A stretch of DNA of 63,923 nt. Source: Elsinoe ampelina (lineage: Eukaryota). How positions within the stretch are numbered: position 1 is the first letter of the stretch; every line of letters begins with the position of its first letter. Made by a program: the position numbers and the translations under genes. The notes under the pieces are model-generated. The model did no database searches, had not been told where the DNA came from, and saw only the letters and a program-made list of their open reading frames with translations. Positions 37,405-63,321 of this stretch are shown piece after piece. The stretch spans positions 975,196 through 1,039,118 of the forward strand of contig ML992506.1 in NCBI GenBank assembly GCA_010093995.1, in the 5' to 3' direction.

Positions 37405-37575
37405 TCACGAATCAAGAGATGCTGATGATTCTGTTCGACGAGCAGGCCCGTAGATCCGCGTATCATACTGTAGATCGATTGCAAAGATGTCAACAGTGAT
37501 GCTGGGTATGGTGTTGACTTGTGTGGGGGAGGAAAAAGGATTGATTACTGCCTGATCCACCAAACTGAGGTGGAT

Positions 37576-37770
37576 TGTAACTACATAAATACTTAACCAG
37601 ATAAACTAAGAGATAGATAAATCAATAGAACTCCTAAGTAACAACAGATTAAGACAATAATTATCTAATTTAATCATAGATTAGTAAAATGGTAAGATAG
37701 TGTTTAGTTCAACCTTAGGATAAACTAAATTAGGGTCTTCTTAGCGCTCTAGCTTATGCCTCGGTTGACA
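37576..37770 (-). repeat. 3' LTR (~195 bp) of the Copia element
   Basis: Bounded by TGTAAC...GTTGACA and starts at the GC/AT boundary. A polypurine tract (minus strand TAAAGGGGTA, 37771-37780) sits directly before it. Confidence 0.7.
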
Positions 37771-39556
37771 TACCCCTTTACTAAGTAGCTATAACTCTAT
37801 AATAGCTAGTTAGTGGACTACTAACTCGAGGGATAGCTATTATAAGAAGGCCTTATACCTTCTAGGTAGTAATAACTTAGTTAATCTATTAGCTAAGGTG
37901 TCTACTAATAGTGTCTATGTCACTAAGATAGGGCTAGATAGATCTCTAGCTAGATTGATCTCTTGTCTTAGCTAGTAATAATAAATATTAACATAGTAAA
38001 GGCGTATATTTAGCTTCTTAATTAGAGTAGTAATAAGACTAATAGTTTACTAATTGTTATACTAAATACTAACATGTTTAAGGGGATAAATAGAGGCTAT
38101 TAGCCTCCTCTACTATATAGCTTGCTTAGTAGTCTCTACAAGAGTAAGTAATTTAGCTTCTATGCTTAAGGTTATAACTATTAGCTACTTAGTAGCCTTC
38201 TAGTTAATTAAGCCTTAGAACATCTTAAATAGATAGCCTTAAAGGCTCTTCCTTAAAGAGTAACTACTAAAGCTAGCATCTAATAAGGCTTAGAAGATTA
38301 GAGGTAGCATTAAGCTATTAAAGGTAAGAGCTAGATCTTTAGTTTTATAGAGATACTAGATTACTCTATTTACTAGCCTCTAGTAAGTTAGTAATAGATT
38401 AGTTAAGTGCTCTAACAATCTAGAAGTAGTAAAGGCAACATTAGGCCTTATAATAACAGCTATAAAGTTAATAGATCTAATCTTCTACTAGTATAGATAG
38501 ATCTCTTATAGTAATACTTAGCCTTTATAAGGCTAGAGTATCTTAATTAAAAGTAGTATTAATATTAGCCTTATTAGCTCTATAATAAACTTACTATATA
38601 TCTACTATATATACTAGGCTTAACTAAGCTATAGCTTCTTAGTTGCTCTATCCCTTATAACTTAGATAGCTAGAAACTAGCTTAGATCTCTAAGTACCTT
38701 TATCTTATATTTAGTATAGAGAGCTATAATAACAAAATTAGCCTTCTCCTTATACTTCTTAAGATATATAATAGTAATATTATCTACAAAGAAGAAGATT
38801 ATTACTTTAGAGGTTAGCTAGAGATAAGAAGCCTTAGGAGCCTAAGTAAAACTAATACTCTTTAGAGTAGTAGTAAATTTAGTATACTAGAGAGCTAGAG
38901 CTTATTTAAGACTATATAAGGCTTTATTAAGCAAGAGGATTATATCTAATAGAGTAATACTAGAGTAGTCCTTTATAAGCTCCTCTATAACTAACTTAAA
39001 TCTAGAAGGGATAGTATAGTAGGTAGTCTTATTAATAGAGCTATTAATATAGGCATTAATAATATCTATCTAGACAGCCTCTATATCTTTATAAGCAAGT
39101 AGAGCTATAAGCATTCTAAAGATCTTAGCTGCTAGAGTTACTATATAAGTCTTAGATTTTGTTAATTAGAGATTACTCCTTATATAGACTTTTACTTTAT
39201 ACTTTATAACCTCTCCTTTATTATTAACTTTATAGGTAAATACCTATATTAAAGGAATAAGCTTACTAGTAGCTTAAGCTACTAGTATAATAGTCTATAT
39301 ATACTTTAAGTATAAAGTAAGTAATTTAGCCTTTATAGCCTCTTAAAATTACTTCTTATAAGAATAAGCCTTAAGTTCTCTAATATTAGCTAGTAGTAGT
39401 AGGAGATTGTCCCTTAATTCTAGCTAAGGCTAAGTTAGTGTTATTAATAGATAAGCATTAAAGGCTTAGTAATATCTAGAAGCCTTATTAGTTTATATAA
39501 GGGTAGTAATATATACTTACCTTCTTAGTTTTCTTATTCTTTTTATTATAAGGATA
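37576..39556 (-). mobile_element. Ty1/Copia LTR retrotransposon, RT-RNaseH and 3' LTR part (RIP-inactivated)
   Basis: De-RIPed minus-strand motifs: RDNLPPPP (~39400), WVFTYK (~39235), DIVNAY (~39055), LNKALYGLKQAP (~38915), FFVDD (~38785), and RNaseH HVDIHHHWLRQE...ADGLTK (~37875-38005). Confidence 0.9.
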
Positions 39557-39586
39557 CGTTATAAAAGTCCTAAGCGTAGAGAGTTA
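39557..39586 (+). repeat. Left terminal inverted repeat
   Basis: CGTTATAAAAGTCCTAAGCGTAGAGAGTTA versus the reverse complement of the right end, TATTATAAAATCCCTAACGCTAGAGAGCTA: 22/30 identical, and 4 of the 8 mismatches are transitions. Confidence 0.75.
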
Positions 39587-39756: not shown

Positions 39757-40515
39757 ATAGAAATTAATAAGTATCTTCCGGAGAGAGCCCTCTAAGCTAG
39801 TGTTATTATAGATCTTGTCTACTAGATAGAGGAGAAGTATATACTCTATATTATTAGAGCTTAGTATAGAAGCGCTTTTGCTATAATAGGAAAGTAGACA
39901 TTATACGCCTTATTCTTTAGCTTACAACATAAAACCCTAAACTAATATATACTTATTCTAACTCTATTTTATCGTCTCTACTTAGTTGTCTATTAAGGTA
40001 TTAGATGTCTCTAAAGATAAGTACTTTCGCGTAACTATATAGCTAGCGACAAAGGTTAATACTAACAAAAAGCGCCTCTATCGCTCTATAGCCTATAAGT
40101 TCTACTATCTAGCGGCCTATATCGTTAACAATGTAAAACAAGCTTATAGAGGGGCATTTATAACTTAGACTTATAGATATAAGGAAGCTTTTCCCGAGAA
40201 GAACTTAATTATTATAGCTAAGCACAGTTATAACATTAAGTATAAATACCTATAGACCTGTTCTAGTACTTAGAAGTCGTTAGTAACGTAGGAAGAGAAT
40301 AACGATAGGAGCTAGATATACTATATTAATAGTAGCTATAGTAGTAAGGCTATAGCCTATTCTAAGAAGATTAATACTAATATAGACAGGTACGGGAAAT
40401 GTAATAGATATTTAGTTTAGGCTAAGCTAATCCCTTGTCTACTAACACGGAATAGTATACCTACTAGAAGAATAATTCTAGAGCTACAAAAGACTACCTA
40501 GAAAAGTAAGGTCTA
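39757..40515 (+). pseudogene. SprT-like (GCNA/ACRC-type) zinc metalloprotease, RIP-mutated
   Basis: gcc tat aag ttc tac tat cta gcg (40091-40114) reverts by transitions to AHEFCHLA (HExxH). It is followed by HGGAFxxW, KHSYxIxYKYLWTC and the zinc ribbon HSKKIDxxxDRCGKCxGxLVQxKP (~40355-40430). Confidence 0.8.
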
Positions 40516-41335
40516 ATAGACATTAGTATAGTGTCTAAGTAGCCCCGGAAATAGTACTAAGGATATAGTAGTCTAAATAACAGCTTAAAGGCAGTTATAG
40601 CGGAGAAGTAAATACTCTTTCTAGGAAGTTTAAGATCTACCCTAACTGCCTATCTACGAGGTTATTAGTAAGGAGGTAATTAGTAATAATAAGAGACTTC
40701 TTCCGCTTCTTACTCTTCTCCTTTGCCTTACCGAGCTTAATACTAGCACGGCTATAGACATAGACGAAGGTAGGGGTAGTACGCTTCTTGCCTTACTAGC
40801 TCTTAGCGCTAGTTATAGCAGTTGTCGGAGAGGTAATAGAGGCAGTGTTTAGGTTAAGATCGCGGTACTTTATTGCTATATATTAAAGATAAGGTTACCT
40901 CGACGTGCACTAAGCTTCTAGTAATAACCTATAGTTATAGCTATATACGAGCAATAGTAGTTATAGAGGGAGTAGTAGTAGTAGCTTCGGTTATAGTATA
41001 CCTTACTATAGTAGAGAGCAAGAAGGAAGATATAGAGGAGAAAGAGAGTATTTCTCTCTCGGAGGTAGATATAATAACACTTTTTCCTACTATATTCCGC
41101 CGCCCTACTATTACTACTACTAAGTAGTAGTTATAGTAATAGCGCATGTAGGATAATCTAGTATATAATCTTATAGACAGGATTTGTTATATATATATTA
41201 TATACTAATAATCTTACAAGGAAATACTTACGATCTATATAGATATAAAGGAGACTTTAGAGGACAAGGAAGAGGCTACTTGCTATACTAAAGGGTAGCT
41301 TCTTCCTCGACTTGTTTCTTACGCATAGTATATAT

Positions 41336-42070
41336 ATAGAGATTAACAAGAATATTCCCTAGTAGGTCTTCTAAGCTAGTATTATTATAGATCTTGTCCG
41401 TTAGATAGAAAGGAATAAGTCCTTAGTAACTACTCTAGTAGTATCGAGTAGATCTCTACGATATAATAGTAAATAGAGTAAAGCACTATCGTCTATATCG
41501 GAGTCTTATTAGTAAACTTATTATAGAGAATAAACTTTCCTCTTAGACTACTAACTCCGTTAGTAAAACTAACCTAAAGATAACTTACTAACCTAAGCCT
41601 TTTACCGCTATTACTAAATACTTAGGGTATATCTTAAGTATCTTAAAGACTAACTTCTATAACGCCTCGCTATAATTTCCTAAGCTATTATAATTAGTAA
41701 AGGAATAGACTAACTCTTTAGCGTAAAAACTATATAAGGCACCTTAGGCTATAAACCCTATATAGTTTAGGGACTAACTTAATAATATACAGGTATAAAC
41801 TAACTAGTTAGAGTAATACCTACGAAAGTTATTATAACTTGCCTACCTAATATAGTCTAGTAGTTAACCTAAGTGTACCTAAGCGTTAGGCTGTTAACGT
41901 AAGAGATAATTATTCTAGCTACGAAAGGAGTACTCTAGCTTCGTTAATGCCTACTACGCTTACTAACTATACCTAGGGATCTTAACCTTTCTTATTTTAA
42001 AGCCTTAGCTAGGTAGAGCTATTTAGACTTCTATAACTTATTCTATAGCATGTTATATGTGTCGAAGTTA
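41336..42070 (+). pseudogene. Orphan ORF relic sharing its N-terminal ~25 codons with the SprT-like locus
   Basis: De-RIPed start MEINKNIPQQVFQAGIIMDLVRQME resembles MEINKHLPERALQAGVIMDLVHQME at 39757. Its stops are RIP-type TAA/TAG. Confidence 0.45.
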
Positions 42071-44720
42071 GCTATGTTATTAATATATATCCGGCTGTAT
42101 AGTTTTATTTTATCTACTAGCACGACGTAGATACTATAGTAGATTTACGAGGTAGAGTAGACACGCCTACTAGTAAGGGCATTCTATCTAGCTCGCGCGC
42201 GTCGATTTGTCTAAGGCTTAATTAGTGTTATACTATACTCTTAATTAGCTACTCTATTCGGCCGAGTAGGCTAATATAGATCTACTAGCGCTCCTATATA
42301 GTATAGGCATTAACGCCGGCCCGATCTACTAGACTAGAAGCTATTCTCTATAGTTATTATAAATATAATACAAGCTAGTAACTTACCTTATAGGCTATTA
42401 GGTAATGCTTCGTTAGTGCCTTTATTGTTTGTTGTTTATTCTTATACCTAGAGCTAGTCTTACCTCTTATTACTACGTATCCTCTACTATTTAGTTATAC
42501 ACTAGATAAAGTCTTATTCGTCTATATTAGGATCATTAGGATTATAGTTAGATAGTTTTCTACACTTTAAAGAATAGTAGAACTTAACGTAGAGGTTACT
42601 TACCTAGGAAGAATCTAGTTCGAGTCTATCGGGATCTAGTTTAGTATCGAACTAATTAGAGTATTTAGTTCTCGAGTTAGAGCCTATATTAGCTATACCT
42701 TAACGAGCCTCGCGAATAAACACCGCTATTACTTACTATAGTAATAGCCTAGGTAGCATATTAATAAGCGCCTCTAGTTCTCTTACTATACGCTATATAG
42801 CCTCTCTCTTAGTACTAGACTAGCTAAACTAAGAAGTGATATTCACTGCATTACTTATGCCAACTAGCGTACTCTAGATCTTAATTAGTTTAGTAGCCGA
42901 TAGCCTAACTAACTTCGAGAGGTTGTCGAATACTACTAATATATTTACTAGTTTAGTGTTATAAGTAGTAACCTAGTCTTTCTATCTAGCCTTCTTATTC
43001 GTAAGTTTAAAGGCGTCCTTAATAAAGCGTACATAATTATGCTTTAAATAATTAGAATCGAGGCTAGTAACTACTTCGAAATTATAGATAGCCTTTAAAA
43101 AATGTATTATTAAGTACTATTTCGGAAAGTTAAAGTCGCTCTCTTCTTTCCTGTTACTATAATAGGCCTAGAAGATTTCTTTATACTTGTTTATCCTAAA
43201 GAGCGCAAGGTTAATATACTAGAGTATATCGTCGTTATAGGTCTTATAGTTTACTAGTAATATAAAGTTAACTAGTACGCGTATAAACTTAATAGCTTAA
43301 GGCGCCTTAACCTTCTCGAGTAGCGGCATAAATACTAGAAGTATCTAGCGTATAATACTCTTCTACTCTTAACCTGTCTATTACTTAATAGCTAAGTAGT
43401 GTAAGAAGTGTTAGATGCTAGGAAATACTAGTATACTATCGAAATGCTTGTCAATAATATTAAGTATAATCTTCTTTGCCGAGCGCTAGTAGCCTATTTG
43501 CTATATAGTCTCTCTAGCCTTTATATACCGTAGTAATCTCTATATAGGTATTAAATCCTAGAGTAATTTTCGAGTCTAGTATAAGACGTGTATTAAAACG
43601 CCTTTAAGAAGTTAGTATAGAATATCTAGTACTATCGCGTAGTAAATATTAATATACGAAAGATCCTACGCGAAGTAACTAACTATATAAACCTAAGAGC
43701 TTATATCTATCTTCTTGCTCTGCTACTAACTCTTATGTGCTTCTCTCTATAAGCGCTATTATCGCTACGTAGAGTAGTAAGTTTAGAATAGCATAGTAAC
43801 TACTAGGTTCTCTCTTTTATCTTTACTAATTAGGCAACTTATATAATAATATAGTAACTTTACACTAGTTATAGTAACCTATTCGGCGTAATCTATAGGT
43901 ATAGCGGCAAGTATAGGAAAGTACCTCTACCTCTTTCTATCCGTATAGGAGATTATTTTACTCTCTCTCGAGTAGTAATTAATAATAGCGTTAAAGATTT
44001 TCTTTATATAAGTATAGTAGGTCTTCTCCTTAATAATATTACTACTATCTTTAATAATAGGAAGTAAGCTAATTAGTAACTACTCTAGCTAGTAGTTACT
44101 ATTACGTGCTTCTACCTTTAGGTTGCCTAATAATAGATAGACAGTATATACTATAAGATCTCCTTAATAGTTTATTACCTAGGTCTAATTACTTATAACA
44201 ATTAATAGAATAATAGTAGCCCCTAGTATCCTAAGTCGCTTTTGTGTGTCTTATTACTAGTTACTGCTTGCTATTTCGATATATACTTATTATAGCAGCT
44301 TACTCTCGACAGCTTCTATAAAGACTCTATATAGGCTATAGTCTATGTCTACTACGAAACTGCAATAGCCAAGTAAGAAGTATATTACTATAAGAATATC
44401 TAGATGCTAAAATATGTATCTTTTAGGCCTACGATTAGTATTTAGTATAAAGCTTAAGGTCTGCTAGCCGTTAATACCCCCGCCTATATCTAAATTCTCT
44501 ATCTTCTCTATTAGTTCATTCGTAGTTCGCTAACTAAGGCTCTCTACTAGAGGTTATATACGTAGGTCTTTAAGCAATTACATAATTATAGCTCTACTAA
44601 GTTTCTCCTTTATAAGCTACTAGGTAAGACCTACGTCTATACTACTAATAAAGGCTTACTTTAGTTAAGTCTTGCCTAACTAATTGTGATTTAGTTTATC
44701 GTTAGTGTCGGTGTATATAT
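42043..44720 (-). pseudogene. Plavaka (CACTA/EnSpm-related) transposase, RIP-mutated
   Basis: De-RIPed motifs: WWWDTQKRL..GATIIPLIVMSDQT (~44180-44260), VYLSLGNL, CxDGKRRRCFPILAA..DYAEQ (~43880-43950), PDILHQLLKGV (~43600-43630), FPGIRHF..KQWTGQEQK, FNFPKWH, KDAFKLTNKK, and C-terminal IHVVP...YINN..DFDTY. Confidence 0.88.
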
Positions 44721-45144
44721 TATAGACTTAGAGAGATCTAGACAAGATTAGTTAACGCGAACTAAGAATAAACTATGTCTATAACTAACTCTTCGCTACT
44801 AGCTAGTATACTAGTAGCTATCTCGAACGTAGTATAATTAGATATAGCTCTACTAGATAAGGACAACCTCCTAGCACTCTACCCTATAGATATACTACTA
44901 GTTGTACTTACTATAATTACTTACTCTTTCTTATGCGTGCCTTCTATTATAACCTTATCTATGCCCTCCTCTTCCTCGTGTACGTCGCTATCGAGCCTAC
45001 TATTACTATTACTGTCTGTTCTATATGCTAGAGGTCGAGAGTTAAGGTTAGTAAAGAGACTAAGAGAATTATCCGCTATACTATACTATATAGTAGGTAA
45101 AGGGGAAAGGACACTCTCCGCTAGCTATAGACTTTCGTTTCTAC
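44719..45144. repeat. Direct repeat block A (copy 1; copy 2 at 52071-52496)
   Basis: ~426 bp colinear with 52071-52496 at an offset of 7352; differences are mostly transitions. Confidence 0.92.
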
Positions 45145-45169
45145 TCTAGTGTTTAGTTCGATTCTTAGT

Positions 45170-48100
45170 TACTATTATTCGTAGCGGAGTAAAGTAAACT
45201 AGTAAGTTATTTAGCGTCGGCGAACTATGTTGTACATTACTAGTAATACTACCTCGTTAGCCTTTATTAGATAGTAAGTACTCTCTCTTATTAAACAAGC
45301 AAGGATTATTACTAGCGTTGTCTCTATATAGATGTCTATCGCTACGTTACTCTAGTAAGACTTATACTATGTTACTTATTAGTAGCTCTCTTCTCTAGCA
45401 ATATAGTAGATATTAGACAAGGCCTCTACTAGATTATATAATCTTCCTATAGGCCGAGCATTTACTAATTTGCCTTAGTATATCTATGTTTGTTACTTAA
45501 GATCTAAATTCGTAGTTAGAGTTAGCTAGCTAAATTTTAGTAATAGTAGGAAGTAGAAAACGTTTAGATACTACATTATATTAGGTAACCTAAAAGATAG
45601 TTTAATATGCACGGGGAACTAAATTAGTCCGCTAAACTAAAGAATTATATTTTTAAGTAATATAGTTAGACTATTATCTAGTAATCTTAATTATTATCTA
45701 TAACAATTGTGTTCTTCTTTGCTATAGCTTATTAAAGTTTCTAGATCTTTACTTTCTACTTCTCTATTTCCTTGTAGATAACCTTCTATATTATTAATAG
45801 CCTACCCTGTCTACTATTAAGCTATTCTAGAGGCCTATAGAACGGAGCTATTAGCTTTATTATAAACGCCTCTATATAGTTAAATTTCTAAGACTTAATG
45901 TTCCTATAGACCTAAGCTAGACACTAAAGGATAGATTATAATACTAACGCTATATTAAGTAAGATTATAGTATCGAAGCAGTTTAGATTAAGACTAGTCT
46001 TAATAGCTCTACCCTAGGCAATTAAGATCCTTAAGCCTTTTAGCCTATTAGGTTCGATAAATGTATTGTTAGATATAGCTATATTAATAATGTTTATATA
46101 GGTAGGTATAGATGTTATTCTATAGTAGACAATAACTATATTAGCATCCTTATCGATCCTAATTGCTTTACTGTCTAGGTGCTTCTCGAGCTATTTTAGA
46201 TACTATACCCTTATTAGTAATAACCTAAATAGACTAAATAGACTAAACTAACTATTGTAGCAACTACTAGTACTAATAGTATAAACGTATAGATAATTAC
46301 TTACCTCTTTAGCTCCTTCGAATAGGAGATATTCTACTTAATAATCTTAGAAATAACACTATAAAGGACCTTTATCTAAGGACTAGTATAGATCTTGTCT
46401 ATGTACTACTATAGCACTATCTCCGAGGGGTTATATATAATTTCGTAGGCAAACTTAATAGTAAAGTCGCTAAACTCTTCTATAACTATAGAATTGTCCT
46501 AGAATATATCTATAAGAGCGAAGAATATAGAGAAAAGTAGTAGCGGCGCGACTAGGCTTAGTATTTACTTCTTAGTCTTCTTATTAAGGATTATCTCTAA
46601 TGTTACTTCGGGCTTATCGGATTTGTCCTTTTACCTATCGATTACCTCTTATATACTCTTATCTATATCTCGTTTAATTTTCTTCTATGTATTTATAAGA
46701 CTATAAAGATACTTATTCTCGATAGTAATCTCTAGGTCGAAGATAGAATACAGTAGAACTCTAATAGCTAGTAGACTAGGAGTAGTATCGAAAGGTTTCT
46801 AGATATAGTCTACGTTTATCTTAATAAGAATGTTCGTAAGGATAGTACTCTATTTGCTAACTGTTACTATAATCTCTTCTATAAACTATATACTTCTCTT
46901 TTTATTAAACTTACTAGAGTTGTTGTTTGCCTTATACTATTTGTCAATTACGAAGGCATAGTCTAATACTATTTAAAAGTTAAGCTTATTAGCGATAGCT
47001 TGTTAAGTCTTATCTAGTATTGTCTTTAGTATTACTTAACGTTTATTGTCCTTAGCCTTAGTTAGCTCCTACTTAGATTTATAGATGTAGTTCTTGTTAA
47101 ATTCTCCTATTCTACTTCTATTTGCATTAAGCTTTTCTAATTTAAAGTCCTTATATATAGCCGCTATTAAGAATGCTACTACGTTTAAGTACTTAATAAA
47201 TAGTATCCCGCTTATGCCTAGTATAAAAGGCCTCCCCGGTAGTATTCCTAGACAAAACTAGGTCTACGTCTTCTAGCTAGTAACCTAATAGAACTTATTA
47301 AAGATAATAGCGGTCTAGTTTATAGGCGTAGACCCTAGCTTTCTTTCTTGTCCCTTAGGAACAAAGTTCTAATCCTTAGCGTTTATATTATTCTTACTAA
47401 GGAAGTAGTAGATTATAGTGTCGTAAGTAGTAAAGAAGAACTAATTATTCATCTATAAGGTCTAGGGGTGTTACTTATATATATTAACTAGTTATAAGAC
47501 TATAATAGTGTCGATAGGCTTACTAGACTTATTTATTAGCTAAGACTCCTATTAGCGGTAGCCTATAGGTAGATTCTCTTTGCAAATTAAAGTATCTATA
47601 TTATATACGTTGCTATACTTATCTTCTCGTATAGCTTAGAATATTCTTCCCTAGTATAGAACGACCTTTATATTAGGTATAAACTTCTATATCTCCTACG
47701 CTTACTATTTTATTATATTTAATCCGCTAACAATTAGATTATAGCTAATAGTATCCGTAGAAGCGATATCTAGCTATAGCTTATTAACTAGTGTCTTTAC
47801 CTTCCGGTACTTACTCTACTTGTCCTTAGGTATAGTAGCATAGTTAGTATTCTAGATAACCTTTTTATTTAAGTTCTAAATTAGTAAGAGAAAGAAGAGT
47901 TCTATTAGAGTCTTTCTAAATTCTATCTTATATATAAACATAAATACTAGGTAGCCTTTAAGGTATTTCTTAAGTATAATAAGCGCTAAGTATATCTATG
48001 CTACCTCGACTAGATACTTCTTATTTTAACTAAAACACTATACACTAGCGTTTAGTAAGTAGATGTCTTTCTTAAAGCCTATAAAGTTATAAACTCTCTC

Positions 48101-49850
48101 CTAGAACTCTTTAGACTAGTAATTAATTCTAGTGCCTATAGGGATAAAGCTTTAGTTAGCTAGATTATTACTAGTTTACTTGTTATTATTGTTATTTATA
48201 GTATAAAGTTTAACGAAGTTCGAGCTACTAAGAGTCTTATTAAATATACAAGTTGTAAGCGCTAGAATAGGTATAGATAGCGTCTTAGGGACTAACGGAA
48301 TATAGTACCTTACTTACTCCTTACTAGGTATAATTATAAAGAAATACTAATTACTGTCTCGGTATTACTTATAGTATTTGTCTTCTGTTACTCGAGTAGG
48401 ATAATAGTCAATAGTAGTATTATTCTCGTTAGGCAGTAGAGAGCTAGGTTACTTCTTAGAGGTAGATTTACGTAGTAGTAGATACTTAGCTAGAGATAGA
48501 GAGGCTAGAGGTTCCTCTTTCTCTTCCTCCTAGACTAGAGTTGATAGCTTCTAACTATTACAATACTAAAGAGAGTTAACTAAGTATATTAGTATACACC
48601 TAAGTCGAACTAAGTGTTAAACTTATAAAGTACTTCTTCGGGGAGCTTCTTAACTAGATCTATACTAGGCGTAAGATAGACAAAGATTATATTACTACCT
48701 TTAACTAGGGAGTTAATATAGTTAATTATAGCAGTATATAGGTCGTAGTTATCTAAGATAGGTAGGATGTTATATAGCTCTATATAATTTATCTATATAA
48801 GGATAATATTATTACTAACTAACTTCTTCTCCTTTAGGAATAGCCTAATGTTATTAAGGCTATATTTATTCGAATTATAATTCTCTAGATGTGACCTTAA
48901 AATTCTTAGACTAAATACCTATAGACGACACAAATATCCTCTCTTTATAATTATACCTAGGCTAATGTCTAATTACTTAACAATTATAAAGTTAATAATA
49001 GTTTTATTAATAATGCTCTAGACTAAACGAGACATGTCCTCTAGTATTTACTACTAATATATAAGCTAACTAGTATAGTAATTAATATCTATACCTATAA
49101 GTCCGCTACTAAGTATAGAAGTCTCTAATCTTTTAGAGAGTCTACTATTAAACTAGATAGCAGAGAGGCGCTTTCTAATATGCTTCTTAGGATAAGCCTT
49201 CTTATCTACTTTAGTCTAATTCTTCTTATTTCTAAGCTCTTACGCCTTAATAGTAAGGATAAAATCTTTAATAATATTATAACTAGATATATCGTTATAG
49301 TTTCTAATATTCCTCTTAAACTAGTCTTAGTCTTAATAGTATAGTCTTTAAAAGAAGATCTTCGTATAGTTATCCTAAGAGTATTATAGAGAAGTTTTAA
49401 TATTATTTATAATTATAGTTATATTAACGTTACTATCCTAAGGTTCCTTATATTTAAGTCCTAGAACTATATAGGTATTCTTATATTCTTCCTACGCTCT
49501 TATATATATAGCGGCGTACTAGTTGTTATTCTAGTTAAAGAATTTAAGGAAGAATCTCTTAATCTTAAGGTTTTTATTAAGCTATACTTAAATTTCTATA
49601 GGAGGTCTTTCGTAAAGTAGAATGTTATTAGTAGCTATACTAGCGCTATTAGGCTAATTCTTAGACATATTATATATGTCTATAAGCTTAGTATATGCTA
49701 CAAATAAAGCTTAGAATAATATCTAGTAAATAGGTTAAGTAGGTATAGTAGATGTTAAAGAAGAGATTCTATAAAGGTGTTACGTATTTATAAGTTTAAA
49801 AGAATTAAGGAGAGAATTTATTAACGTAGTAGGTCTATATACTTCGTGAT
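45170..49850 (-). pseudogene. SNF2-like superfamily-2 helicase/ATPase, copy 1, RIP-mutated
   Basis: De-RIPed motif I LCLHEMGFGKT (~47908-47945), motif Ia LIVxG..QWAQEIRKFxPDxKVVLYQG (~47650-47740), TTYD, motif II WTAIIFDEFH (~47288-47320), motif III GMSGTP (~47200-47220), and HELICc RILIA..AIKTGLNL..D..ILLD....Q.LARVHR (~45905-46035). Boundaries are approximate. Confidence 0.8.
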
Positions 49851-50591
49851 ATATGCCTAACTAAGACTTAACTAAAGAGGAGATATTTAAGTAAAGAGCG
49901 CTTAAAAGAGAGATTAAAGAGGTTAAAGAAATACTAGAGAGCTATATAAGTTATTTGTTTATATATAAGAGAGTATAAATAAAAGTAAACTAAAGCAATT
50001 AAGGAGAGAAGTAACCTAAATTTAGTTAACTTAGGTTAGGCCCTAAACTAAGCACGTAGTAGTATACTAGATATAGCATATATATAATAGTAAATTACTT
50101 AGTTTAGACACTAAACTAAGAGTAACTATAGTCTATATACTTAGTTACCTTTTATTTTACATGCTATATATACTAAGGATACTATTGTTATATTTAGGGT
50201 AGATCTTAAGGAATAATAGTCTAATAAATAGAGGGAATATAGTAGTAGTTAATGTAAAATAATTAAACAATATTTTAATAGCGAAACTAGTATTTGTATA
50301 TAAAGGACAATAGTAATAGAACATAAATAGAAGGTAGTTAGTAGCCTATAGCGGAATAAAGAGTATAGTATGTATAGCGTATAGTATAGCTTATAGATGC
50401 TAGTAAAGGAACAAAGAAAGTAATATACTACTATCTAATTATCTAGACTTTATAATTGCTATATACGGAATTAAGTAGCAGAGTAAAGTAAAGGCTATAC
50501 ATTCCGTAGAACGGGCAGTTAATAGTATATTCTACATAATTATAAATACGCTTTATTCCTCGCCTAGCCCTGCTAGGAAGGCAATAGCAAG

Positions 50592-51368
50592 AGAGAATAC
50601 TACTAGTATAGCTCTACCTATAATGCTCTCTATAGTAAGCTACTATCTAGTAGGAGGTAGTAGATATATCTTTACCTATAATATTCCTCCGTCTCTTCCT
50701 CTTTGTTATACTAGTTATTCCTCTATAATTCTCCCCTTAATATCTTTATACTATAAGGCAAGTAATCCCTAGTAGACGCTAGCTTCTCTACTCTCTTTAT
50801 ATACGCTAGAACTCCTAGTAGTACTATCTATAAGATTAAGAGATACTCCGTAATAGATTTACTTAGTCGTAGCTACTAGGTAGAGACAGTAGCTAGTCCT
50901 ACTAATAATACGTAGCTAGTATAAAGGAAGCTATAGAGGGCAGTAGTAGCGGAGAAAGAGAAAGAGGTATTAGAGTCTCCTTACGCACCCTTAAGCCTAT
51001 AGCGGCATAGTAGGCAAGATAGAGAGGTATACTATAATAGATTTGCTCTAGCGTAACTACTAGGTACTAGTAGTAGTTAATTCTATAAATACGACATAGC
51101 TAGTATAGAGGATACTATTAGAAGTAGTAGTAATAGTAAGGTAGGAGTAAATGTTAGAGTCGCTATTATATATATAGTAATAGATAATTGTAGTGTACTA
51201 GGCGGGGGATCCGCTATAATAGATAGCTAGCTATTATCGAGGTTAGATAGAGAGGAGAGAAAAGGTTATACTAGGGATATTAACGCCTACGTTTAGGTTA
51301 GTATAAGCGGAAGGCGTAAACTAAGACGTTATAGTAAATTATATCTACAATGTAGTTATGTTACTATA
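50592..51368. repeat. Direct repeat block B (copy 1; copy 2 at 57763-58540)
   Basis: ~780 bp colinear with 57763-58540 at an offset of ~7171; differences are almost all C/T and G/A. Confidence 0.93.
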
Positions 51369-51493
51369 AACAGAGTTTATAACGCGTTTATAATGCTATA
51401 AAGATTATAAGTCTCTAAACATATAATACTTAACTTTAGAGAAGAACATAATTAGATAGTATTACATAATTAAGTTTCGAGGAGTGCTTAATC

Positions 51494-51693
51494 TAGTTAG
51501 GTCGAAATTTTAGATCATCCTTAAACTTCGAGAGAGAGGACTAAGACATTATTAGTTTAACGTAATAAACTACTAGCTGTCCTCTACCGGCCGTAGTTAG
51601 GTCGAAATTTTAGATTATCTTTAAACTTCGAGAGAGAGAACTAAGAAATTATTAGTTCGACGTAATAAACTACTAGCCGTCCCCTGCCGGCTG
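51494..51693 (+). repeat. 100-bp tandem duplication
   Basis: Two units starting TAGTTAGGTCGAAATTTTAGAT at 51494 and 51594, located between the two helicase units. Confidence 0.9.
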
Positions 51694-52070
51694 CCCTCTA
51701 CTACTGCTATATATAACATACTAGAGATAGAGTAAAGCGACGATTTACACTACTAAATTTAAGTCGAGTAAGCTTCCTACTAGTAAACACTATTTTGCTA
51801 TTAGTTAGACTACTATAGCCTTTACGTATGTAACTTAGACATATCTTTAGTACTCTTACGTAGGTAGAAGTAGATTTATTAGAACATTATATAGAGGCTA
51901 ATAGTCCGCGGCGAGTGTATCCTACTAGAAGGCGCTTCTACTATAACGACCTAACTCGAATTAAAATTATCTATCTAAGTTAGTAGCTTGCCTTTTATTA
52001 AACGTTAGAGCGCCGAGCCGAGGGTCCCTAGCTAAGCTATATCTTATTAATCGCTCGGGGCAAAGGATGT

Positions 52071-52496
52071 ATTATAGACTTAGGGAGATCTAGATAAGAT
52101 TAGTTAATATAAACTAAGGATAAACTATATCTATTACTAACTCCTCGCTACTAGCTAGTATACTAGTTACTATCTCGAACGTAGTATAATCGAATATAGC
52201 TCTACTAGATAAGGACAACCTCCTAGTACTCCGCCCTATAGATGTGCTACTAGTTGTACTTACTGTAATTACTTACTCTTTCTCGTGCGTGCTTTCTATT
52301 ATAACCTTGTCTATGCTCTTCTCTTCCTCGTGTACGTTGCTATTAAGCCTACTATTACTATTACTATCCGTTCTACGTGCTAAAGTTCGAGAGTTAAGGT
52401 TAGTAAAGAGACTAAGAGGATTATCTACTATACTATACTATATAGTAGGCAAAGGGGGAAGGACACCTTACGCTAGCTATAGGCTATCGTTTCTAC
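52071..52496. repeat. Direct repeat block A (copy 2)
   Basis: Colinear with 44719-45144. Confidence 0.92.
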
Positions 52497-52519
52497 CTTA
52501 TTACTTAGTTTAGTTCTTA

Positions 52520-55500
52520 TTTACTATAATTCGTAGTAGAGCTAATAGGACTAAGCTATTATATAGCGTCGGCGGACTAAAGCTAAAATTATATCTACGC
52601 TATAGTACTAGACATGTTAAGATAGAGTTTGCTCTAATATATCTAGGCGACAGAGTTTGTTAGCTGTTTCTTACTTAAGGACAATATTAAATACTATACT
52701 TAATTAGCTATTATCGCGCTATTGTCCTTAGTAGAGACTTTTATAGCAAGTATAAAATAGAGAGCGCTACGTAGGCATAATAATTTTAGCTAGTAAACGA
52801 TTTATAGCTCTTACTATCTCGTGTCTTAACTTGTCGCTAGTATTATAATAAGTTAGTTATAAATAGCCTCTACGAAAAAATAGTAATAGTAGTATACGAA
52901 GATGCCTCGGCTATATAATATTAGGTCGTTTATGCCTATAGTTAATCTATTAGAGGTAGTCGATTAGTTCGCTAAACTAAAACTAGTACTTTTTAGGTGA
53001 AAATTGTAGGCGTTCCCTTAACCGATCTTAATAAGGATAAACTAATAATTTACTATTACTCCTCTATTAGTTTAAATAACTACGCTTTTAGTTTGTCCGC
53101 TTTGCTATATTGTCTTATATAACCTTCTATATTATTATTAGTGTATCGTAGCTATAGTTAACTTACTTCTTTAGCTAATAGGATAGTATAGTTAGCTTAA
53201 GTGTAAATACTATTATTATATCTATACTAGCGAATGTTATATTCTCTAAGGCACTATCGGAAGTCTACTATAATAATTAGATCTATATACTAACTTCGTA
53301 TTAAGCGAAGTTACACTATTAAGGCGGAAGTACTAGTACTCTACTCGTTATAGGACTATATACTATTCCTAGTTACAAACTAACTAGTATAGCCTTCTCG
53401 AAGTAAGTTTACTTTAATATAGCTACTCTAATAATGCCTACGTAGCTTACTATAGACTTCTCTTTATAATCGACAATAACGACTTTAGTGCCCTTACTAA
53501 TCCTAATAGCTTAGCTATTCGGGATTCTCTTAAGTCTCGTAGATATAGCTCTCTTATTAGTAACAACCGAACTAGACTAACTAAGTCGAACTAACTACTA
53601 TAGCTACTACTAGCGCTATAGAGTTATACGTACGAATAATCCCTTACTACCTCTTAGTCTTCTAACTATAGGCTTTCTATTCTATAATCTTAGGGATAAT
53701 AATACAAAGGCCTTATATTTCTAATCTAGTATAGCGCTAGCTATATACTTATCTACTACTTCAGCTCGAAGTACAAAGTCTAAGGAGTGTCTATAGCCCT
53801 TACTATAATGTTAGTCGTTGTTATTGCTCTTCTTATACTAGTAGAGCGGCGGAGTAAATAAAGTAAGCTTATAATAACATCTAGTATAATTACCTCTAGG
53901 TTCCTTTTGCTTATCAAATATAGATATTATCCCGTGCTACTCTCTCCTATATAGCGTCTCTATAATTGTAGTTAAGGTATACTCCCCTATACGCGAAGCG
54001 ATTTATATATATAGTGCTACTAAAGAAATAAGATATCTATTCTTAATTAAAACTTTAGAGTCCTAGTTAAAAATATCTCGAACCTAATAAGACATAAAAG
54101 TAGGTATAGCTACTAAATGTTTTATAATTAGGTTAAGATACATGTTAAGAGGAATAAATAGAAGTCTAGCTATCTATATAGGGACTAATATAAAGATTTT
54201 AAACTAGAAACAAGAAGTAACTATTATATTTACGAAAAGGGGGCCGTAATAGGCTTTAACTATTCTTATATTACCTTTATATAGGCGAAGAGCTATCTCT
54301 TATTATATTATATAGCAATATTAAGTTAAATTATGTCTAGTTTATTCTCTCTTATTCTTTGTAATAGGTACGTCTTTGCCGCCTATAGATAGAGACTAGC
54401 TCTACTATATTAAAGCTGCCTTTATTAAGTAGTAGGTATCTAATTCCTTTCTCTTAGTATAATTAACCTTATATTAAATATTAAGCTTAATACTAAACCT
54501 ACGTATGTAGTTAGTAGAGCTATACTAATACCGAGTAGTAATTACCTAACAAGGAGAGGTATAAGATAGCTAGGCGTTATAGCGTTCCCTTAAAGAACTT
54601 ATTCGCTCTAATATAAAATAAGTTTATTTCTAGTTTTAGGCTAACCGAACTAACTTAAGTTTATACTTAGTTAAGAGGCGTAACCTAACCTAAAGCGTCT
54701 CTACTATTTATTAGGAGGTAGTAGCTAGAACTAATAATAGTTAGCGAGAATTCTTTATTAACTTCTAAGTATACTACGTATAAACCTCGCTAGTATATAA
54801 GGGTAAAGCCTAATAACTATATTAGTAGTGACGCCTATACGCTTCTTTATAGCACTATACTATTCTTATTTAATTTAGTTAACTCTAAGTTCGGTATAGA
54901 ACTAAAACTTGTACTATTACTTCTACTATAATAGGGGACAAGATCCTATCCCGCTAACTTGTTTTACTTATTATTAAACGCTCTAGTCTATTATATCTAT
55001 AGTAGTATCGCTTCGTTTCTATTGTTAATAATATTAAGAATATATTACTTTTTTAATACTAATATTAATCTCGTGTTAGTAGAAGTAAGTCGTTATCTTC
55101 TTAGACTTACTCTCTTTGCTCTAATATATTATAGCATACTAGGCGAGCTATAGGAAGTTACTAGTAACAAAGTAGAACTTAGGAGAGGTATTAGAGAGCT
55201 CCGAGAGATTATATTTATCTAGATAGATAGCCGGCCTTAGGTGTATAGTAGCTTATATAATATCCTTTAAGCTATTAAAGCAGTAGGAATATAGATAGCG
55301 CCTCGGCGGCATATACTATAGTCTAAATAGGCTATGTTCTTCTAGCGGGGGAGAAGGAGCTATATTCTTCTAAAACTATATAAAGTAAGACTATACCCCG
55401 AACTAAGTCGCTAGGTTAGTTAGAATCTGTCTAGCTATAGTTATAGGACTATTAAGCAAGTTTACTTCTAATAATAATAATAGAAATTATAGGATTTATA

Positions 55501-57000
55501 GGGGCTATAGTCTCTTAGGGGTAGAACGAGCTAAATAAAACTTTATTAGTTAAGAACTAAATAGTTTTATAAATAACATAATAGCAAATAAAATATAGTA
55601 GTATTACTACTCTTGCCTTTAGCAGTTTAGTTGCTATTACGGGTATTAAACGTTCTATATTATAATATTCTCTTTCTACTAATCTTCTTTACGCTTCTTA
55701 TTAGTATTAATGTCTATAAAGTAAAGCTTCTTAGGAGTAAAAAACACTTCCGAGTCCTCTTCTATAGTAGCCTCGGCTATAGGAAGTAGTTACTAGCTAC
55801 TATAATATTAATAAGAGTTATCTATAAGTGTTAGTATATATAGATAAATAGGGAAGAGGTAAACTTACTTTATATAAAGTCGAGAAGATCTTTAATAGAT
55901 GCTATAGAAGAAGCAAAATAGAGAAAGATCTTATAGGCACTAGGGATAAGAGTTGTAACATGCTCGGTAATAGTAGTATCTAGATCGAAAGAGTCTTTAA
56001 TAGCGAAGACTTATACGGAGTTATACGTGTTAAGCTAGTAGAGTTAGAGGTAATTACCTCTAATATTAAGGATCTACCTAAGCTTACTAATATAGTAATT
56101 AACATAACAATTCTTATCCTTGCTAGTACTAGGCTTTCTTAAGTTATAGACGCAAATATTCTTTCTTAATGTTAGATACGAGATAGTGTCTACTTTAATA
56201 ACCTCTATAATCTAGATCGTAGTAAATTCAATGTTAATTTAGACACGATTAGACACTAGCCCCTAGTTAAAGCTAAACATTCTATAATAAGGCTATATAT
56301 ACAAATCTAATCTCTTATCGCCTGTCTTTATACAAGTTGTACGTCTCTCTAAGGATAGTATTCTTACTTAGGAGAGTATTAGTATCTATATAGACGAGGT
56401 AGCTAAAGGATATAGACTCTAGGTGCCTCCTTTACCTAGCGATGTTATTCTTTCCCTTTTAACTAACGGGAGATTTACCCTTATTAATTATATAGTATTT
56501 TAGAATAATCGCTATATAGCTTTTATCTTGTTAATATTAACTATAGTCTATAAGTTCTCCTTAAACTAGTCTAGATCTTTCCGATCTAGTTAGTTAACGA
56601 AGAGCTAGAAATTGTTAGGCGTGCTATTTAGTAGCCTAGTTTTAATTTTAAGGCGTGCTTTAAGCACTTTAGAATTACGTAACTCGCTTCTATCTTGTTT
56701 CTTAATTTTAATATTAGATTCTATAAAGACTTTTAAGATTATTTTCTTTATTCTTGCGAACGTAGTAGAGTATTACTAGTTATCCTAATTAAAGAAGAAT
56801 TAGATAAATTTCTTATTAATATTGTTATTACAAAGCGTATTCTTAATAAGAGCTAGTATAAGGTTATTAAGTAGAATCTTTTTTATAGGTTTAGTAGCGA
56901 CCTTTAGCTTCTTTATCTTCGGTAGTATAGTACTATTATATGTATTTAATAAGTATAAGAATATCTACTAGTAAAGGCGTCGTATAAGGTAGGTAAGGTT
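52520..57000 (-). pseudogene. Highly diverged paralog of the SNF2-like gene (copy 2), RIP-mutated
   Basis: Colinear peptide-level similarity to copy 1 (PNSQAIGIGKGTKVVIV vs PDSKAIGIDKDANIVIV; shared aat aat ata gaa ggt tat = DDIEGY; a GTP motif near 54585). It has the same position between blocks B and A. Boundaries are approximate. Confidence 0.65.
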
Positions 57001-57762
57001 AGAGGGGTTAAGATTATATAGCTAGGAACTAAGCGTAGTAAGTTAAGCACTATAGAGCAAATAGCAGCAATTATAAATACCTACTACTTAGTATAATATT
57101 AAAATGCTACGCGGAAAGTAGGTAGTAACTTCTTAAATATAATAAAATTTGTATTTAAGATAGTATACTAAAGTAAGTAGTATACTTATAACTAAGATCT
57201 AGTTCGGGCCTCGACCTAAAAGTAAACTAGATTAACTAAGTCTATATTTCGCACGTGCTAATAGTAACACGTAATAATTACTAATATTAGGTTAATACTA
57301 GAACTAAAAGTAAATAAGTTAGTTTACTACTAACAAATATTATAGGGCGTAAATTAGGTAAGCAAACAAAACGTAGCTATCGGAGAATATTATAAGTGCT
57401 AATTATTGTAGAAAATTAGTGTTAAAGCAATTAACTATACTAAACACTTATATGTTAGTACTATATACAAAGTTATATATACTTCGAATAGCTAGTAGAC
57501 TATTTAACAAAGAGTATTATCGTATAAAGCAATAACCTTAATATCTTTATAGTAGATAGAAGACAAGATAAATAACAAGAAATAAAGAAAGATATATAGT
57601 ATACTTATATATATTAAATAAGGAGATTTTATTTACTAGTTAGAGGAGAGAGATTAAAGCGATAGGTATATAATCTATATAGAAAGAAGTGTATTACTAA
57701 CGCGAGGAAGTTATAACAAAGTACTACTAATAACGAAACTCTACTATAAAAGCAATTATAAA

Positions 57763-58540
57763 AGAGAATACTACTAATATAGCTCCGCCTATAACGCTCT
57801 CTATAGTAAGCTACTATCTAGTAGGAGGTAGTAGATGTATCTTTACCTACGATATTCCTCTATCTCTTTCTCTTTATTATACTAGTTATTCCTTTACAAT
57901 TCTCCCCTTAATATTCTTATACTATAAGGTAGATAATTCCTAGTAGACGCTAGCTTCTCTACTCTCTTCGCGTACGCTAGAACCCCTAGTAGCGCTATCT
58001 ATAAGATCAAGAGATACTCCGCGATAGATTTGCTTAGTTATAGCTACTAGGTAAAGATAGTAGCTAGTCCTACTAATAATACGTAGCTAGTATAAAGGAA
58101 GCTATAGAGGGCAGCAGTAGCGGAGAGAGAGAAAAAGGTGTCGGAGTCTCCTTATACACCCTTAAGCCTATAGCGGCGTAGTAGGTAAGATAGAGAGGTA
58201 TACTATAATAGATTTGCTCTAGCGTAACTACTAGGTACTAGCAGTAGTTAATTCTACAAACATAATATAGCTAGTATAGAGAAAACTATTAGAAGTAGCA
58301 GCGACGGCAAGGCAAAAGTAAATATTAGAGTTGCTATAGTATATATAACAATTGATAATTATAGTGTACTAGGCGCAGAAATCCGCTATAATAGATAGCT
58401 AGCTATTATTAAGGTCGGATAGAGAGAAGAGAAAAGGTTACACCGGGGACGCTAACATCTATATTTAGGTTAGTATAAGTAGAGAGTACAAACTAAGGCG
58501 TTATTACGAATTGTATTTATAATGTAGTTATATCGCTATA
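57763..58540. repeat. Direct repeat block B (copy 2)
   Basis: Colinear with 50592-51368. Confidence 0.93.
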
Positions 58541-58805
58541 TAATAAGTATACGACAAAACTAAGAGGAGATAAAGTTTAGCGTATTAAACTTTATAGTTC
58601 TATAAGTGTTAGTTTAGACTAACTAATTATAACTAAGCATAATTCTAGTATGCCTCTCTCGTAAGTAAACTAAGATCTAAGGCTTATCTATCGTAAGTAA
58701 CACTCGCACCGAATTACTACCTATACTACTGCTCTCTTACCTCTATCTCTCTCTTCTCTTCTCCTCTCTATAGCTACACCTATATCTACTTCTTATTAAC
58801 TAGCG

Positions 58806-59540
58806 ATGTGCTTAATCGAAGCTATTAAGCAAGCTCTCGCTCTTAATAATAAAGGCTATAGAGACTTATATAGTCTCTTAGAGGATATTATAATAGGTAA
58901 AGGCATAGTTAGAAGAACATTTAGGTCGATTTCTAATAGGAGAAGGTTAGAGAAGGAGGTACTTCTAGTAGCACTAGATAGTAATAATATTCGGTGTATA
59001 TTTCGGCGTACAATAGAGCTCTTAGAGAGCGGCGATAGTTAAGCTACCTTCTATACTCTCGTCTATAAGATAAGTACTAATTTTAGACGTTAGTAGGTAT
59101 AATTACACTTAAGATTATATAAGCCTAGAGGAGCGTAGAATAGTGCTAATACGCTTGCCTCGAATAAATCCTTAGATTACTAATTACAATTATAAGTGCC
59201 TTTACTCTCTAATCGACTAGACGACATACTATTAGTAGTTTATAAGGATAGAGAGATATATCCTATCTACTCGATTAGAGATCTTCTACTTGCATATTAT
59301 AAAGCTATAACTGCCGTGTCTAAGGAGAATATAGATATTAAGTTCGATTAGCTAAGAGTAATATTAATTATAACAGACCACTATATATATAACAAGTAAA
59401 GCAATGTTATAGGTTAGAAGGACGATAGAACGCTATATTTCGCTACAATAGAGAATGCTATCTAGTTTAAGGCTATTATCTTATCTAAGATATTATATAG
59501 TTTACCTCTTTATATCCTAATAAGGCGACAAGATTAAGGA
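58806..59540 (+). pseudogene. Orphan cargo ORF relic (~240 codons)
   Basis: The ATG at 58806 follows a CT-rich leader, and the frame continues past RIP-type stops. No family recognised. Confidence 0.4.
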
Positions 59541-62500: not shown

Positions 62501-63291
62501 TTGTAACTTTAACTACTACTAAACTAAGTTAGGTTATAGTTAGTATATACAAGAATTAATAGACTTAATAGCGACATCTACCCGGGCTACTTAATTATAC
62601 ACGTGCTATACTGTCCTAAGATGGACAACTTAATAGCGATTTACTAGCGGTCGAGGCGTAGTAGAAGGATTTCTTAGGTACATAGACGTAGATAAACTTT
62701 TTGTCCTTCGCATATAAGAAGTTTAGAGGCCTACTACGTAAACTAGTCTTATAGTACTAAATCGGCCTAAAGTATAGTAGCAGTATCTTAGACATTAAGG
62801 AGGACAGACATTCGCTAGATAGAGATACTTTTATAGAACTAAGGGATAAGGATATAGAATTACAAGAAGATAGTATATATATTATTATCGAGAGTAGTAT
62901 TAGGTAGAACGTAAAGCAATATATGTATTCTAGCGACCTTATATAATTTTCTAAACGTAGTAGACGAATTATAAGGTCTATATAATATATAGATATATAT
63001 AATATATACTACGAGGTAAGCTACGTAATAGGATATTTCTATAATTAATATTGTTAAGCTTATAGAGTAGACACGAACTAATTACTTTGCGAACTAAGAA
63101 ACGCTTAAACTAAGATAAGGGATACACGTAGTACGCTATCTACTATTAGGCCGTCTCTGTTTGCTACGCATTAGAGGTTTTTAGATTTCTACGGGGAAAA
63201 ACTATATTACTTCTAAGTAGGACCTAGGGGTAACTAGGGAATTACATCGAACTAAGTTAAACTAAGTTAGTTACTTAGAAGTAGTCTAACG

Positions 63292-63321
63292 TAGCTCTCT
63301 AGCGTTAGGGATTTTATAATA
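63292..63321 (-). repeat. Right terminal inverted repeat
   Basis: The reverse complement matches 39557-39586 at 22/30. The overlapping CTAACGTAG (63286-63294) is the reverse complement of CTACGTTAG at 39622-39630. Confidence 0.75.

Follow-up and report, generated by a model that had tools for sequence, protein, structure and literature searches.

The stretch of DNA analysed here, referred to as the window, comprises 63,923 nucleotides of the 28.3 Mb genome of the fungus Elsinoe ampelina (GenBank assembly GCA_010093995.1, contig ML992506.1; C6:975196-1039118). Positions 1-37,400 contain ordinary fungal genes at a GC content of about 0.54, and from about 38,000 onwards the DNA is heavily altered by repeat-induced point mutation (RIP), with a GC content of about 0.30 and a composite RIP index of +1.5 to +1.85. 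Inside this altered part lies a RIP-destroyed Plavaka-type DNA transposon of 23,765 bp (39557-63321, minus strand), in which the remains of a gene for an SNF2-family ATPase precede those of the transposase. A preliminary description of positions 45170-49850, made from the sequence alone, had taken this region for a transposon-encoded SNF2 remodeller. The placement of the gene in a transposon is borne out: it lies inside a multicopy element bounded by terminal inverted repeats (TIRs) and by duplications of the target site (TSDs), and it precedes 28 of the 28 Plavaka matches in the genome as well as the Plavaka transposase of L100, a metagenomic relative.

The SNF2 relic was modelled on the minus strand from 49668 to 45687 as three exons in different frames with two short introns (1,294 codons with 92 stops, all of them TAA or TAG), and not as the single open reading frame (ORF) of about 4.5 kb proposed earlier. 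Exon 1 (48627-49668, minus strand, start inferred) would encode an N-terminal domain of about 347 amino acids that has no Pfam match; it is homologous to 57000-55870 in the same element (score 139 against a shuffle maximum of 59), and its frame is kept between element families A and B, which are defined below. Intron 1 (48580-48626, 47 nt, minus strand) is a putative one with branch point and acceptor present, whose splicing brings exon 1 into frame with exon 2; RIP has damaged its donor in 25 of 25 readable copies, and a tandem paralogue of the gene has a canonical donor at the homologous place (55868). Exon 2 (46253-48579, minus strand) holds the ATPase N lobe with motifs I, Ia, II and III, a helical insertion and motif IV, as placed by the motif positions and by alignment to an intact homologous protein, P0001. 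Intron 2 (46203-46252, 50 nt, minus strand) has its donor in 25 of 26 copies, together with branch point and acceptor; at this site P0001 reads into an intron-like stretch, and in L100, which is intronless, the same residues are joined. Exon 3 (45687-46202, minus strand) holds the helicase C lobe with motifs V and VI, and the spliced C lobe aligns with the intact C lobe of L100.

A gap of about 220 bp separates the end of the SNF2 gene from a probable first exon of the transposase (44830-45470, minus strand), which would begin with a zinc-finger-like CxxC..H..C motif at 45469. Positions 45170-45686, which the preliminary description had counted as SNF2, belong to this gap and exon. The probable exon resembles the N-terminus of the transposase at another metagenomic locus, L102 (weak zf-C2H2 match, E 0.045), and is the top-scoring window of the element for the 5' exon of L100. 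The main transposase exon (41900-44800, minus strand, 3' end approximate) yields an alignment that reaches 42025, and its Pfam core, PF18759 (E 7e-23 at 44520-43585), lies on the same strand as the SNF2 gene, in agreement with the earlier claim that the two are adjacent and co-oriented.

The helicase motifs I, Ia, II, III, IV, V and VI indeed follow one another in order on the minus strand, at 47932-47909 (I), 47716 (Ia), 47308-47288 (II), 47221 (III), 46300 (IV), 46004 (V) and 45929-45903 (VI). The strings first quoted for them are inferred pre-RIP forms, and the letters of the window at motifs I, II, III, V and VI read YKIEFRKT, FNKFY, ISGIL, KTSLNL and L*CLA*VYR. Across 26 copies, the H, E, G and G of motif I are retained in 1, 1, 2 and 2 copies and the D, E and H of motif II in 4, 2 and 2 copies, while the M of motif I, the P of III, the G of V and the Q of VI occur in none of the 26; the H of motif VI is R in 11 copies, Y in 13 and C in 1.

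The raw relic, tested as three translations of the SNF2 region plus the N-terminal exon, gave no Pfam SNF2 or helicase match. A profile of six copies with X at stops, searched against 1.84 billion proteins, returned one match, P0001 (E 1.1e-4), which scores above the cut-off for Pfam SNF2-rel_dom (PF00176; 47.8 vs 24.9 bits) and is colinear with the relic across 521 columns (hhalign probability 97, E 1e-10). The relic is counted as an SNF2-type N lobe because this intact homologue passes PF00176 and is colinear with it. The C lobe of L100 is a Helicase_C domain (PF00271, 28.8 vs a cut-off of 23.5) whose best matches in the PDB are INO80, ISWI and Chd1 (E 3e-4 to 8e-3), and the spliced C lobe of the relic is 21% identical to it over 176 amino acids (33.5 bits, where the highest of 200 shuffles gave 21.9). 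Motifs III and IV lie about 300 codons apart (47221-46300), and this spacing aligns with P0001 as a long helical insertion. The AlphaFold model of P0001 had a predicted local distance difference test score (pLDDT) of 31 and did not confirm the fold of the insertion. P0001 contains no chromatin-reader Pfam domain. A word-index homologue search with the six-copy alignment found none among 7,996 candidates and with P0001 returned only P0001 itself, and P0001 had no match in metagenome contigs, viral contigs, the genome that contains the window or PDB sequences. Its language-model neighbours include SNF2 clusters of nucleocytoplasmic large DNA viruses (NCLDV; 0.94) beside a eukaryotic cluster (0.95).

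SNF2 proteins are double-stranded DNA translocases that move nucleosomes or strip bound proteins. By virtue of its intact homologues, the gene product is classed as a divergent SNF2-family ATPase of about 1,290 amino acids, for which double-stranded DNA translocase activity is predicted. With cellular SNF2 remodellers (INO80, ISWI and Chd1; PF00176 plus PF00271) it shares both RecA-like lobes, the order of motifs I-VI and the long insertion, but it is highly divergent from them, with DEFH as motif II, no PDB match for P0001 and an N-terminal domain of uncharacterised kind.

The borders of the element were read by comparing the ends of its copies. The whole length is co-copied in about 20 other places, and similarity between copies runs out to 39557 and 63321. 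The transposase end (39555-39573) consists of a TSD at 39555-39556 and a TIR of 17 bp, and the far end (63305-63323) of a 17-bp TIR (63305-63321) and a 2-bp TSD. Nineteen assembled copies were examined for TSDs, five of them readable at one end only; all 14 copies readable at both ends have matching 2-bp flanks (TA in nine, and TC, CT, AG, GT and AA in one each). These 14 copies measure 23,757-24,327 bp with one exception of 16,560 bp, a family B copy that lacks the first unit of the tandem pair described further below. The least mutated TIRs read CGTCA..TGACG, and one copy ends in TGATG. Both the PF18759 transposase domain and the 2-bp TSD assign the element to Plavaka. The SNF2 region itself has 18 other full-length copies in the genome at 91-92% identity (family A), 4 partial copies and 4 copies at 78-80% (family B).

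Coordinates of 26 of the 28 Plavaka matches coincide with the listed copies of the SNF2 region, one of which is partial. The other two form family C (C2:2124256 and C4:900580; L192-L195), which shows no blastn similarity and whose transposase is 36-39% identical. At both family C loci an SNF2 gene lies upstream and co-oriented (23-25% identity over about 700 amino acids, E 5e-38 and 5e-30); its frame changes where the intron of family A lies, its motifs are recognisable, and a further gene of the element, gene X, is present; family C termini were not found with the end pattern of families A and B. Outside the genome, a scan with an intact transposase, P0002, yielded 62 metagenomic Plavaka loci, among which L100 is the best match to the relic transposase (the consensus is 36% identical over 936 columns) and is not affected by RIP. 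L100 starts with a 5'-truncated Helicase_C ORF of 210 amino acids upstream of, and co-oriented with, its transposase, and this ORF is 59% identical to P0001 over 39 amino acids. The linkage is therefore conserved across three families in the genome and in an intact relative, with the gene inside a TIR- and TSD-bounded element. In L100, two direct repeats of about 190 nt were seen by eye between the SNF2 stop and the transposase (L100:860-1250).

At L102:5783-8668 and L101:1471-4353 an intact helicase of superfamily 1 (SF1; AAA_11/AAA_12, IGHMBP2/Upf1-like) of 961 amino acids lies just upstream of the transposase and co-oriented with it. The two loci represent one lineage, their helicases being 99.5% identical, and element termini were looked for at both and not found, so that the SF1 helicase is not placed inside an element. 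No helicase was seen at the other 59 loci in 140 of 141 ORFs of at least 165 amino acids, one having been left out for its size. Among viral contigs, a Plavaka alignment was confirmed for none of 112 pattern matches.

For the origin of the SNF2 gene, 27 host SNF2 domains were compared, after 3 short fragments of 30 matches had been left out. The N lobes of the relics reach 39 and 49 bits with P0001, and with none of these host domains more than 6.5 bits. In a tree of 192 columns the relics and P0001 form a clade with support 0.954 on a long branch, adjoined by two divergent SNF2 domains of the host genome, L187 (C7:857257) and L188 (C10:498389), possibly through long-branch attraction; the SNF2 domain of L188 contains two stops. 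Host SNF2 subfamilies include Snf2, ISWI, Chd1, INO80, Rad54, Rad5/16 and others, and neither the bit scores nor the tree group the relic with any of them. As far as sequence comparison reaches, the gene is shown to be unrelated to the host's own SNF2 subfamilies, and neither a subfamily nor a donor can be named. The preliminary description would have been refuted by homologues that are ordinary syntenic single-copy host genes never linked to Plavaka transposases, and this is not what was found: the gene lies inside a multicopy element, precedes the Plavaka transposases of this genome and of L100, and is far from every host SNF2 examined.

RIP wrecked the SNF2 gene together with the transposase. 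Fifteen family-A copies were compared with the consensus: every one departs from it by 1,282-1,837 C>T and 1,245-1,758 G>A changes, while other changes amount to at most 38 in 13 of the 15, the remaining two being partly misaligned. The mean transversion distance among 13 family-A copies is 0.1%, and the history of family A reads as a recent burst followed by RIP. At 202 of 596 sites all 15 family-A copies are mutated, so the parent copy may already have been RIPped when it spread; the transposase is as rich in fixed stops as the SNF2 gene, and the shared mutated sites therefore do not single out the ATPase. The copy in the window is dead and has no evident host function.

The novelty implied by the preliminary description has to be lowered, as SNF2 genes in fungal En/Spm-derived transposons named Entons are already in print (PMC3520738; PMC3627910). 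Entons and Intons were introduced by Kapitonov in a 2012 meeting report as fungal elements with five to six conserved proteins, derived from En/Spm and IS3EU ancestors (PMC3520738), and a one-sentence mention gives fungal En/Spm-derived Entons an SNF2 helicase (PMC3627910). Entons and the element described here are both fungal and multi-gene, with an En/Spm-derived transposase and an encoded SNF2 helicase, the fungal setting of the element being shown by fungal-type genes, introns and RIP. Five to six conserved proteins are given for Entons; in the element three regions are conserved between families A and C, a decayed paralogue is present, and 59700-63000 and 39800-41600 may hold further genes. 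The element is likely of Enton type, a likeness drawn by description and not from an Enton sequence. The arrangement was touched on in 2012-13 and has apparently never been set out in full. Beyond the two Enton mentions, the literature covered, to which subscription journals and Repbase Reports do not belong, gave no description of a Plavaka- or EnSpm-borne SNF2 gene, and the pairing was not found in the available portions of PMC10799480, a Spirogyra preprint and PMC13547354.

Plavaka transposases are EnSpm-related, and PlavakaB elements have a 2-3 bp TSD and CATCA..TGATG ends (PMC12730594). The element shares with them the Plavaka transposase and the 2-bp TSD, and its least mutated ends, CGTCA..TGACG, differ from the published ones by one transition each. 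The published PlavakaB families were described in Agaricomycotina and either carry TET/JBP or lack a gene of this sort (PMC12730594), whereas the present element is 23.8 kb long, carries SNF2 genes and sits in a RIP-active genome; the words 'SNF2' and 'Enton' are absent from the main text of that article. Giant Plavaka elements of red algae, 17-19 kb long, have three accessory genes that are conserved and act on DNA or chromatin; this cargo is PAG1-3 (adenine methylase/SET, ParB-like/oxygenase) and no SNF2 motor (bioRxiv 10.1101/2025.02.11.637652). In Parastagonospora (Stagonospora) nodorum, the RIPped 26-kb repeat X3X3R8 contains two tandem, diverged Rad5/SNF2-like helicase units followed by a third unit (PMC3017866). 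Both X3X3R8 and the element are RIPped and have tandem SNF2-like units, a comparison by description only. X3X3R8 was interpreted there as an endogenous cluster that had undergone duplication and that includes a Rad6-like gene, and the available text reports no transposase, TIR or TSD for it (PMC3017866); this 'endogenous cluster' may itself be such an element.

With a confidence slightly above even, we take the region to be the dead copy of an accessory gene that is old in one sublineage of the Plavaka cut-and-paste transposons (EnSpm-related, CMCT) and whose SNF2 product would, as we infer, let the transposase get to the element's ends or to target DNA. The element would make its own ATP-driven motor, which the N-terminal domain would recruit to element DNA or to the transposase. 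This motor would track along the DNA and shift nucleosomes or bound proteins, and the transposase could then get to ends that lie 24 kb from each other and pair them, or act on a target in silent chromatin. Several observations weigh against this proposal. An SNF2 gene was found at 1 of the 62 metagenomic Plavaka loci, where at least 2.2 kb of upstream DNA is present at only 28 of the 62; it is thus not general and characterises one sublineage instead of the whole of Plavaka. The linkage across genomes consists of one contig with the C lobe only, every copy in the genome is dead, with 18-26 stops per transposase match in all 28 Plavaka matches, and at L101 and L102 an SF1 helicase, a kind that is no nucleosome remodeller, takes the place of SNF2. 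Of 32 flanks, 31 are RIP-positive repeat DNA, which fits a motor acting in silent chromatin, yet is equally expected from selection against insertion in genes.

Signs of constraint on the SNF2 gene speak for the proposal, within limits. Frame shifts are caused by none of its 7 indel clusters between families A and B, but by 7 of the 12 in non-coding flanks and by 11 of the 20 in the paralogue's ATPase part, with the reservation that 5 of the gene's 7 clusters are +1/-1 pairs and maybe alignment artefacts. Columns compatible with P0001 in both families A and C make up 17 of 28 motif columns, which were picked by eye, and 117 of 553 other columns. When families A and B are compared, the transversion-based ratio of nonsynonymous to synonymous change comes to 0.36 in the transposase (p 0.0015) and, within the SNF2 gene, to 1.19 in exon 1, 0.89 in exon 2 (p 0.35) and 0.39 in exon 3 (p 0.067); against the proposal, codon-level purifying selection is accordingly clear for the transposase and not for SNF2. 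Overall, SNF2 transversions (6.0%) are no lower than intergenic ones (4.2-7.5%), and by region they amount to 2.5-3.5% at motifs I, II-III and V-VI, 7% at Ia and 8.9% in the linker, a pattern indicating that the protein diverges fast outside its motifs.

The same fast divergence with conserved motifs would fit an arms race, and with it an unlikely alternative, namely that the conserved gene encodes an anti-silencing or transcription factor that makes the promoter of the element itself accessible, or works against heterochromatin and methylation, without taking part in cut-and-paste. Other Plavaka elements carry chromatin-modifying cargo such as TET/JBP (PMC12730594) or methylase/SET and oxygenase genes (Bostrychia; bioRxiv 10.1101/2025.02.11.637652), and the direct repeats that lie upstream might serve as binding sites; however, the family was not protected from RIP, and an SF1 helicase in the same position elsewhere fits this alternative less well. 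That helicase is what recommends a generic nucleic-acid motor of transposition, of SNF2 or SF1 type, which would act without nucleosomes in transpososome disassembly, target scanning or the steering of gap repair: L101 and L102 have an intact SF1 helicase of 961 amino acids just upstream of a Plavaka transposase, Academ transposons are reported to carry RecQ (PMC3627910), and P0001 is without a chromatin-reader Pfam domain. We hold this to be distinctly unlikely, as L101 and L102 are one lineage in which no termini were found, and as the lack of a helicase near the other 59 loci implies that a motor is not obligatory.

A functionless host gene, passively captured and hitch-hiking, would account for the lack of a significant excess of synonymous change in exons 1 and 2 and for the decay of the tandem paralogue, and the similar P. 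nodorum repeat has been explained by duplication of an endogenous gene cluster (PMC3017866). The position and orientation of the gene, the site of its intron and its motifs are nevertheless the same in families with 36-39% identical transposases, the intact L100 also has SNF2 upstream, the reading frame is kept and there is no close host gene, which makes mere passage very improbable; that the element has long possessed the SNF2 gene as a conserved component, and did not capture it recently, is in our view highly probable. Hardly credible is a viral origin, with a giant-virus-like SNF2, or a segmental duplication in place of a transposon. The NCLDV clusters among the language-model neighbours of P0001 (0.94) speak for the former, and TIRs, 2-bp TSDs, a Plavaka transposase and spliceosomal introns are present and no relative was found in viral contigs; these largely refute both ideas for the element itself, and the gene alone may have a remote viral ancestry.

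If the accessory-gene reading is correct, the element has retained an SNF2 motor of its own through a long divergence, which indicates that chromatin is a barrier to it and that it has to deal with this barrier by itself; most cut-and-paste transposons encode one or two proteins. The Enton mention of 2012 is made concrete by a gene model, termini, a TSD, three families and an intact relative, and the kind is tied to Plavaka. With intact relatives one could test directly if chromatin is remodelled by a eukaryotic transposon to serve its own transposition. Since a second Plavaka lineage has an SF1 helicase in this position, the role of the motor may be more general, and we put forward, as a doubtful extension, that a giant ascomycete Plavaka lineage has a dedicated, exchangeable motor slot upstream of the transposase, filled by SNF2 or an Upf1/IGHMBP2-like SF1 helicase, which would act directly in transposition by clearing chromatin from the ends or steering insertions towards blocks of silent repeats; Entons, X3X3R8 and the present elements would then be united in one overlooked group. 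Tn7 TnsC and phage Mu MuB are analogues of such an ATP-driven transposition cofactor, and if the extension were true, a eukaryotic cut-and-paste system would have its own cofactor of the TnsC/MuB kind.

Read from its far end, the element consists of 3.7 kb that are uncharacterised, gene X on the opposite strand, the decayed paralogue of the N-terminal domain and SNF2, a duplicated 5' fragment of the transposase, the SNF2 gene and the transposase. The paralogue (53000-57000, minus strand) was recognised by its C lobe (33.5% over 173 amino acids, E 4e-15) and by hidden Markov model (HMM) matches in families A and B; its motifs I and II are unrecognisable and it has many frameshifts. The duplicated piece of the transposase 5' region (52046-52533, minus strand) is 90% identical to 44694-45181, and a non-coding block upstream of the SNF2 gene (50568-51691) contains direct repeats of 184 nt and 100 nt, with 50568-51367 repeated at 57739-58539 (94%). 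The flanks of the tandem units are thus 90-94% identical, whereas the proteins of the intervening genes share only about 33% identity, a contrast suggestive of homogenisation or of a composite origin. One more helicase C lobe, which would be the third, was indicated by tblastn at 58010-57849 (E 0.004) and was rejected, being neither conserved in family B nor found by HMM.

Gene X (58740-59560, plus strand) would encode an uncharacterised protein of about 260 amino acids that is conserved in families A, B and C (39.6% identity over 250 amino acids to family C, E 3e-36). At L102, farther upstream and on the other strand, lie an unassigned ORF (2241-3089) and a weak DUF6532 ORF (539-1270). The former, in the same position and orientation as gene X, scores 53 against it, above every one of 1,000 and 500 shuffles, though gene X is not the element's top window for it, and a kinship is suggestive only; an ESM Atlas search with the L102 ORF gave 0.78 at best and was uninformative. 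Affinity of the SNF2 N-terminal domain to gene X or to this L102 ORF was considered and is unsupported (scores 33-38, within shuffles). DUF6532 also occurs beside a distant Plavaka transposase (L119:4933-5475, E 1e-5), and a DUF6532 search of the element's own genome gave no match and was uninformative.

Indels between families A and B are mostly frame-preserving at 62900-61500, and near 41000 there is a proline-rich stretch with few stops, so 59700-63000 and 39800-41600 may hold further genes, none of which was identified; codon-position periodicity of transversions, used to map more genes, gave no window at p<0.01. At C10:312790-312820 (L077, L082) two copies of the element stand head to head, one apparently inserted in the terminal repeat of the other, the rest of whose terminus lies at the far end. 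The window copy sits within other RIPped repeats (37400-39554 and 63324-63923); its right flank is a repeat of about 600 bp that recurs at many sites and includes, at 63657-63775, a tandem array of a 12-nt unit. Among the host genes, 12.6 kb outside the element, a transporter of the major facilitator superfamily (MFS_1; weak TRI12) is encoded at 25570-26973 on the minus strand.

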